DNA from: a virus
Taxonomy: Monodnaviria > Loebvirae > Hofneiviricota > Faserviricetes > Tubulavirales > Inoviridae
Strand: one strand, 5' to 3'
IMG/VR virus record: IMGVR_UViG_2541047720_000001
Span: 1-8,169 of that record
DNA: 8,169 nucleotides
Both the position numbers and the translations under genes were made by a program. Positions 552-1,706 of the stretch are shown in pieces; position 1 is the stretch's first letter, and every line of letters starts with the position of its first letter. Under the pieces are notes generated by a model, which worked only from the letters and a program-made list of their open reading frames with translations, was not told the origin of the DNA and ran no database searches.

Positions 552-1706
552 TCATATAAACCAATAGACCGTCCTTACGCCATTCTGGTTATCAATAACA
601 TAGCCGCATTGTTTCCTTAAAAATTCTTCTGCTAAATCAATGGCTTTTAAAGAAATCTCATAAGAAGGAAGTAAAGTGTATCCTTTCCCTTCACTGGCAG
701 CTGCTTTGATCGCATCCAGAGTATTATCAATCAGTAACAGAGCAAGTGATGTTACCTTGAGAGAAACGCCAACATCATGACGCTCGATAGTCTGAAACGG
801 ATTATTTACCCCGGCAGATTCGCCCGTTACCTTTCCGGTGATAAACGGCACATTCTTACCTACGGAAATGTAACCAGTCTGACCAGACTGAGTAAGAATA
901 CGCGGCGTTGAAATCACCTTAGAGCGTGAATTACTCTGGACAGCACGCAGAGACAGCGCCAACACGTTACCATCAAAAATACCAAAAGAACCGCCCGCCG
1001 TAGAAAGAGCGCTACCCAGTGCAGAAGTATTAAAGCCCCCCGCAACCTTATGACCGGATGCAGAACCTGCCGCAAACGATAAATCAACGCCATCAGACAA
1101 GCTGGTTTCAAACATCAGCGACTGAATGAGAACCTGATCGCGGGCAACATCCACAGAATTGATAAAATCGGACAGAACCGGCAGCAGCTCGTCAGGCGCA
1201 GAAACAATCAGCGAGTTATTGCCTGGATAATCCACGACATTACCACCACCATTAGAATCAAGATAAATTTTAATCAGTTGCTGAACATCGGACGATCTAA
1301 CTTTTGTCAGCTTAAAATTTCTGACCGTAAGCGCCACAGGTACTGGCTGGTAAGATGGCTCAGAAGGAAAAGTATCATAAGACTGGTTATCAGAATCATC
1401 GGAATCCGAAACCATCTGTGAAGGTAATTTAGACGGCAAAGAGACTACCGCAGGATTGCCAGAAAGCATGACAAAACCGTTAGCATTCAGAACAGACTTA
1501 AAGAAATCATCAATATTTGTTGGATTAACATCAGCATTAAATACGGTTACGTTTCCTTTAATATCAGGATTAACAATAACAGGCTTGCCAGTTTTTGAAG
1601 AATACCACTGAACAAATGAGCGAACAGATGAATTGTTTAAATTAACAGTTTCAGCAGAAACGCAGAATGAACAGGCAAATAAAAAAGCAACAATAACAGA
1701 GCGCAT
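552..1706 (-). CDS. gIV: Gene IV protein (pIV) secretin-like phage export channel, 384 aa, with atypical C-terminus
   Basis: The N-terminal ~320 aa align by eye with M13/f1 pIV: signal peptide MRSVIVAFLFACSFCVSA then ETVNLNNSSVRSFVQWYS (compare MNNSPLRDFVTWYS), plus GGSFGIFDGNVLALSLRA, PRILTQSGQTGYISVGKNVPFITG and NNPFQTIER. Start chosen at the ATG at 1706 (AGGAG about 10 nt upstream); the six-frame ORF extends further 5' to 1799, overlapping gI. Confidence 0.8.
   Translation of the reverse strand: MRSVIVAFLFACSFCVSAETVNLNNSSVRSFVQWYSSKTGKPVIVNPDIKGNVTVFNADVNPTNIDDFFKSVLNANGFVMLSGNPAVVSLPSKLPSQMVSDSDDSDNQSYDTFPSEPSYQPVPVALTVRNFKLTKVRSSDVQQLIKIYLDSNGGGNVVDYPGNNSLIVSAPDELLPVLSDFINSVDVARDQVLIQSLMFETSLSDGVDLSFAAGSASGHKVAGGFNTSALGSALSTAGGSFGIFDGNVLALSLRAVQSNSRSKVISTPRILTQSGQTGYISVGKNVPFITGKVTGESAGVNNPFQTIERHDVGVSLKVTSLALLLIDNTLDAIKAAASEGKGYTLLPSYEISLKAIDLAEEFLRKQCGYVIDNQNGVRTVYWFI

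Follow-up and report, generated by a model that had tools for sequence, protein, structure and literature searches.

In one filamentous prophage of Escherichia coli, gIV encodes a protein that begins as a phage pIV secretin and ends in a sequence with no resemblance to one, which raises the question of where this C-terminus comes from and what it means for the prophage. An earlier note on this DNA had proposed three origins for such an end: a divergent pIV lineage, a 3′ replacement by recombination, or loss of export function in a defective prophage. Our analysis covered a stretch of 8169 bp (hereafter, the window) and very strongly favors the last of these, as a case of ordinary prophage decay, in which two deletions by illegitimate recombination would have affected a CUS-1-type prophage, one of them fusing two ORFs in frame.

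A CUS-1-type prophage at dif

The window corresponds to the E. coli chromosome around the replication-terminus site dif, with phage-homologous sequence beginning at nt 148, within the central region of a perfect dif. Between dif and hipBA, the minus strand carries an Ff-like filamentous prophage with a gII remnant, gV, gVII, gVIII, gIII, gVI, gI (Zot) and gIV, followed by a 77-aa ORF. The morphogenesis and structural genes gI, gVI, gIII, gVIII, gVII and gV (1714-5240, minus strand) are intact and 100% identical to those of the reference prophage. The framework of the locus is as follows:

135-162, minus strand: perfect E. coli dif of 28 bp (GGTGCGCATAATGTATATTATGTTAAAT), on the attR side, with 0 matches expected by chance
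201-434, minus strand: orf77 (WP_001159442.1, phrog_5435), an intact phage ORF adjacent to attR
1714-2808, minus strand: gI/Zot, intact
2809-3153, minus strand: gVI, intact
4477-4719, minus strand: gVIII, intact
4923-5240, minus strand: gV, intact
6457-6484, minus strand: imperfect dif-like site GGTGCGCATAA-TGTACGACTCG-TTATGTTGAAA (starting TTATGT after the spacer), on the attL side
6563-8169: hipA and hipB, the other flank of the prophage

Phages CUS-1, from E. coli K1, and YpfPhi, from Y. pestis, integrate at dif, rebuilding a perfect dif on one side, and carry two ORFs of unknown function beside attR (PMC4266046). The window element shares with the prophages of CUS-1 (E. coli O18:K1:H7) and YpfPhi (Yersinia pestis) the gene order gII-gV-gVII-gVIII-gIII-gVI-gI-gIV, followed by two small attR-adjacent ORFs of unknown function, as well as the location at dif, flanked by one perfect and one imperfect dif. 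Nucleotide identity is 100% to prophages of UPEC strains such as Combat2C1, and 99.5% to that of UM146 over window positions 1-2000. Unlike CUS-1 and YpfPhi, the window copy lacks 489 bp (the 3′ end of gIV, a putative packaging signal and the 5′ end of orf102) and 1506 bp (the 5′ end of gII and regulatory ORFs); it is also a single copy of 6.3 kb, not a tandem array, where an intact unit has 8374 bp. The element is a degraded CUS-1/YpfPhi-type filamentous prophage at the chromosomal dif next to hipBA.

The imperfect dif-like site on the attL side has a perfect XerC arm, a spacer of 11 nt rather than 6, and a XerD-like arm with two mismatches, and its sequence is the same as that of the junction between tandem copies in strain Combat2C1 (locus L001). 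These tandem copies differ in their attL-side cargo (L001 13963-15439 versus L005 8959-10378), which makes two phage variants in one array: one copy carries ORFs of 61, 140, 91 (zinc-binding) and 159 aa and the other ORFs of 61, 46, 91 and 230 aa. The window prophage has the 230-aa cargo type, in the form of a 234-aa ORF (5683-6387, plus strand; annotated as 230 aa) that adjoins hipA, has a hydrophobic C-terminal third and belongs to a family without assigned function (phrog_5814, E = 5.7e-144). This cargo gene has been kept intact.

Origin of the gIV C-terminus

The 384-aa protein tracks phage pIV as far as ...HDVGVSLKVT (residue 319, ...FQTIERHDVGVSLKVT) and then continues with 65 unrelated residues (SLALLLIDNT...VYWFI). 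The ORF and its parts are:

552-1706, minus strand: chimeric ORF of 384 aa (gIV-orf102), equal to WP_021522416.1, with gIV codons 1-319 in frame with codons 38-102 of the downstream orf102
752-1706, minus strand: gIV-derived part, 100% identical to the intact parent WP_001258048.1, with the signal peptide, N0, N3 (Secretin_N) and the first ~65 secretin profile positions, including Gate 1
552-751, minus strand: tail, consisting of the last 65 codons and the stop of orf102 (WP_000378923.1, phrog_4115) in their native frame
751/752: junction of deletion 1, where 489 bp are missing relative to L001 7752-8240, with 1 nt of microhomology, inside codon 319 (ACG to ACA, still Thr)

In the front part, Pfam detected N0 (type_II_gspD_N0) at residues 21-83 (E = 1.5e-11) and N3 (PF03958, Secretin_N) at residues 128-191 (profile positions 1-69 of 69, E = 6.4e-11), and the N-terminus, including the signal peptide, is identical to that of the intact parent. 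The match to Pfam Secretin (PF00263) covers only profile positions 1-65 of 169 and ends at residue 320, the full secretin β-barrel domain being absent; that to the PHROG pIV family (phrog_1012) spans positions 7-302 of 403, and none of the NCBIfam secretin matches extends past residue 319. The motifs GQTLLLGGL and ...SKIPLIG... (xPxxSKIPLIG), present in the parent, IKe and I2-2, do not occur in the fusion. The C-terminus is thus noncanonical, as first noted from the sequence, and no secretin profile spans the full length of the protein; the accompanying estimate that it is about 40 aa shorter than Ff pIV is fair, the difference from the intact 421-aa parent being 37 aa. A simple frameshift had been judged unable to restore a canonical end, and the other two minus-strand frames do reach stop codons at the divergence point or within ~7 codons of it. 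The tail that had been described is real, although its boundary at position 760 was misplaced: it starts at nt 749-751, with the junction between 751 and 752.

A Pfam scan of the last 65 residues matched no family, and BLASTP of the tail against IKe pIV found no similarity (E = 0.68). Across the tail, orf102 and orf77, Pfam and NCBIfam scans likewise gave no credible family; PHROGs alone recognises them, as families of unknown function, and assigns the tail to phrog_4115 (positions 34-102 of 102, E = 1.9e-41). The tail corresponds exactly to residues 38-102 of this 102-aa conserved inovirus ORF (WP_000378923.1), with the same frame and stop codon. In the window, orf102 has lost its start codon, residues 1-37 and the spacer in front of it, and what is left is translated only as an appendage of a truncated pIV. 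From its position next to attR, orf102 is probably the homologue of YPO2280a.

Megablast of window positions 1-2000 against 5426 complete RefSeq E. coli genomes returned many 100% matches, in which the 2000 query bases were always split into two pieces over 2489 record bases. In Combat2C1, window positions 1-751 equal L001 7001-7751 and positions 751-5596 equal L001 8240-13085, both at 100% identity, and no repeats flank the breakpoints. The intact prophage has a gIV of 421 aa (WP_001258048.1), a 69-bp spacer and then a separate 102-aa ORF (WP_000378923.1); its pIV covers the whole Pfam Secretin profile (1-169 of 169, E = 5.7e-43) and carries GQTLLLGGL and VPVISKIPLIGWIF. The 384-aa protein is exactly residues 1-319 of this parent plus residues 38-102 of orf102, with the frame and stop of orf102, and the deleted interval comprises the last 102 codons and the stop of gIV, the 69-bp spacer with its hairpin, and the first 37 codons of orf102. 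The noncanonical end arises from this 489-bp deletion, which joins the front three-quarters of gIV to the tail of the next gene. This single internal deletion probably occurred by illegitimate recombination with 1 nt of microhomology; because gIV and orf102 happened to join in frame, gIV now continues for 65 codons into orf102, up to the stop of the latter.

These comparisons bear on the possibility of a naturally divergent pIV lineage, with a secretin that ends differently, for instance through another solution for membrane insertion. A tail without secretin similarity at the end of an open, in-frame ORF is what such a lineage would show, but the tail is, residue for residue, the C-terminus of the adjacent gene, and the flanks are 100% identical to those of prophages with a canonical 421-aa pIV. 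Moreover, the nearest named phages, I2-2 and IKe (~71% nucleotide identity over gIV), end canonically: after SLKVT, IKe, I2-2 and the intact parent all have PVVMGNGQLVLTIDT...GQTLLLGGL...IPLIGW...LLTAH, and the window protein alone departs, matching orf102. None of the IKe-group pIV proteins aligned has the C-terminus of the window protein. Since, in addition, the intact form was found by look-up on at least 1000 contigs and the fusion on 4 to 7, we regard a divergent lineage as exceedingly unlikely.

We attach as little probability to a replacement of the 3′ end with foreign DNA, which would make gIV a mosaic gene. The switch from pIV to unrelated sequence is abrupt, at a single nucleotide, as such an event would predict; however, the replacing sequence is the downstream ORF of the phage itself, in its normal position and orientation and at 100% identity, with nothing foreign in it. 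The suggestion of a 3′ replacement by recombination thus holds only loosely, in that gIV has a new 3′ end, which was not imported but supplied by the neighboring ORF through an internal deletion.

We used the structure of f1 pIV (PDB 7OFH) as a guide to what the secretin has lost. The intact parent aligns with it with E = 2.5e-120 and, because chain position equals query position minus 16 in the relevant block, the break in the fusion maps after f1 residue 303. Up to this residue, N0, N3 and the start of the secretin domain align throughout with pIV of Ff (f1/M13) and IKe/I2-2 (Lineavirus) phages, whereas everything beyond is replaced in the window by 65 unrelated residues. In f1 pIV, the hinges of Gate 1 are Gly267 and Gly297 and those of Gate 2 (321-335) are Asp321 and Asn335, Arg337 links the inner and outer barrels through a conserved salt bridge, and the aromatic girdle at the membrane includes Tyr359 and Tyr394 (PMC8563730). 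The fusion retains Gate 1 and lacks Gate 2, Arg337, Tyr359/Tyr394, the rest of the inner barrel and the C-terminal strands of the outer barrel. With Gate 2, the girdle residues and the C-terminal barrel strands lost, the fusion should be unable to form a closed, membrane-inserted 15-mer outer-membrane channel.

Deletion 1 also removed a near-perfect hairpin with a stem of ~25 bp, which lies in the spacer at the gIV stop (L001 7881-7940) and is missing from the window downstream of gIV. Its predicted free energy is -24.5 kcal/mol (z = -7.4; 0 of 200 shuffles equally stable), and the sequences annotated in I2-2 and IKe as morphogenetic (packaging) signals align with it and share the invariant core GGGTAGGTGCG..AGCCCTGC. 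By homology, this hairpin would be the packaging signal of CUS-1. Besides the start of orf102, the deletion would therefore take away export and, probably, packaging.

The translation signals of the fusion are intact, with AGGAG 10 nt upstream of the ATG at 1706. In a mechanical list of ORFs, the gIV frame begins farther upstream, with the ATG at 1799, and the resulting 415-aa form overlaps the end of gI; we did not adopt this start, as both annotation and databases place it at the ATG at 1706, which is preceded by AGGAG, and the protein collection has no 415-aa form. Directly after the stop of the fusion ORF, originally that of orf102, there is an imperfect hairpin (CCCCGGACA...TGTCCGGGG, at ~505-548, minus strand) that may be a terminator.

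Occurrence of the fusion allele

An assembly or sequencing artefact, in the form of a collapsed or mis-joined contig, could also produce a chimeric ORF, and the junction was indeed found in none of the 5426 complete RefSeq E. coli genomes, where no genome covered more than 51% of a 70-bp junction probe. Over its whole 8169 bp, however, the window is 100% identical to contig DBAAXC010000002.1 of assembly GCA_044043255.1, which has the same single, doubly deleted copy between hipBA and a fimbrial operon. A 60-mer spanning the junction occurs once in this contig and once in each of two Logan read-set assemblies, and is absent from the intact reference loci. One of the Logan assemblies differs by two SNPs, indicating an independent isolate, and one Logan contig was seen in 13 samples. 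The exact fusion protein is catalogued as WP_021522416.1 and was deposited separately as EQP09743.1 and HFU2994505.1, and the breakpoints lack any repeat that could cause a collapse. An artefact is thus very unlikely, and the fusion allele is genuine and rare. It is also recent, given flanks that are 100% identical to those of intact copies.

Two points bear on how these occurrences should be read. The 3.9-kb Logan contigs break at window position 3717, in a run of repeats in gIII (3620-3817) that forms a glycine-rich linker, and short-read assemblies therefore cannot show the site of the second deletion in those samples. The 90% clusters returned for pIV and orf102 also hold gI/Zot (364 aa) and gII fragments, so that cluster size does not equal the count of a single gene; it seems that chimeric or read-through proteins chain these mixed clusters together. 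In strain E1 (hit H25), an IS3 element at first seemed to have inactivated gIV independently, but we discarded this reading because the element sits outside the prophage genes and leaves gIV intact.

A second deletion and the fate of the prophage

The replication gene gII is also truncated in the window:

5252-5566, minus strand: C-terminal remnant of gII, a pX-like ORF of 104 aa that has its own ATG, retains only an intact G2P_X_C domain and has the N-terminal Phage_CRI domain deleted
5596/5597: junction of deletion 2, where 1506 bp are missing relative to L005 8082-9587, with no exact microhomology by exact extension

The intact gII parent (350 aa) has both Phage_CRI and G2P_X_C. The missing 1506 bp comprise the N-terminal two-thirds of gII, with the nuclease domain, the sequence upstream of gII, two small divergent ORFs in full and the beginning of another; a second deletion has thus stripped the prophage of the gII nuclease domain and the regulatory region. 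Overlapping BLAST pieces had pointed to a 13-bp direct repeat at this deletion, which we rejected after exact extension revealed imperfect similarity only. An intact copy elsewhere in the carrier genome could supply the lost functions in trans; the 21-kb context in locus L002 contains one prophage copy only, at dif.

In YpfPhi, which is reported as 99% identical to CUS-1 over 7.1 kb, disruption of either the secretion gene YPO2279 or the replication gene YPO2274 abolished particle production (PMC4266046). From the losses in gIV, the putative packaging signal and gII, we infer that the window prophage is incapable of replication, packaging or virion extrusion. Of the origins first proposed, the third, an export defect in a degenerate prophage, is the correct reading, with the deletion in gII in its support.

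Some features nevertheless fit less easily with pure decay and are compatible with selection. The fusion keeps the Shine-Dalgarno sequence, start codon, signal peptide and reading frame, which would allow a stable periplasmic product; the lengths of both deletions are divisible by three, and the other phage genes are all 100% identical to those of intact copies. The fusion could be selected and functional, for example if a periplasmic N0-N3 fragment were dominant-negative against superinfecting CUS-1-type phage, such as by acting as a decoy for the pI/pXI assembly complex. Alternatively, both deletions could be selected "locking" or "grounding" lesions that domesticate the prophage, sparing the host the cost of phage production while it keeps gIII (puvA) and the cargo ORFs. 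The presence of the allele in more than a dozen sequenced samples, together with the link between CUS-1 gIII/puvA and in vivo fitness (PMC4266046), would agree with such scenarios. However, an in-frame join has a chance of 1 in 3, the spread of the allele may reflect clonal hitch-hiking, and 100% identity just means that the events are recent. Selection thus seems very unlikely, if somewhat less so than an artefact, and we favor ordinary decay by two deletions.

At 489 and 1506 bp, the two deletions have lengths exactly divisible by three, and their microhomologies are 1 and 0 nt, respectively. The chance of two such lengths is ~1 in 9, and this is probably a coincidence.

The significance of these results is mainly one of annotation. 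The allele, a deletion form of a known prophage gene, had already been catalogued. WP_021522416.1 is labelled "secretin N-terminal domain-containing protein", and a more fitting label would be that of a chimeric pseudogene of a CUS-1/YpfPhi prophage, derived by deletion; more generally, the case shows that an in-frame deletion across two genes can mimic a "novel C-terminus". Because it is absent from the 5426 complete RefSeq genomes, the 489-bp junction can be used as a lineage marker. Strains carrying this prophage should not release the phage, which would be relevant only where the mobility of CUS-1 or puvA-linked fitness is studied.
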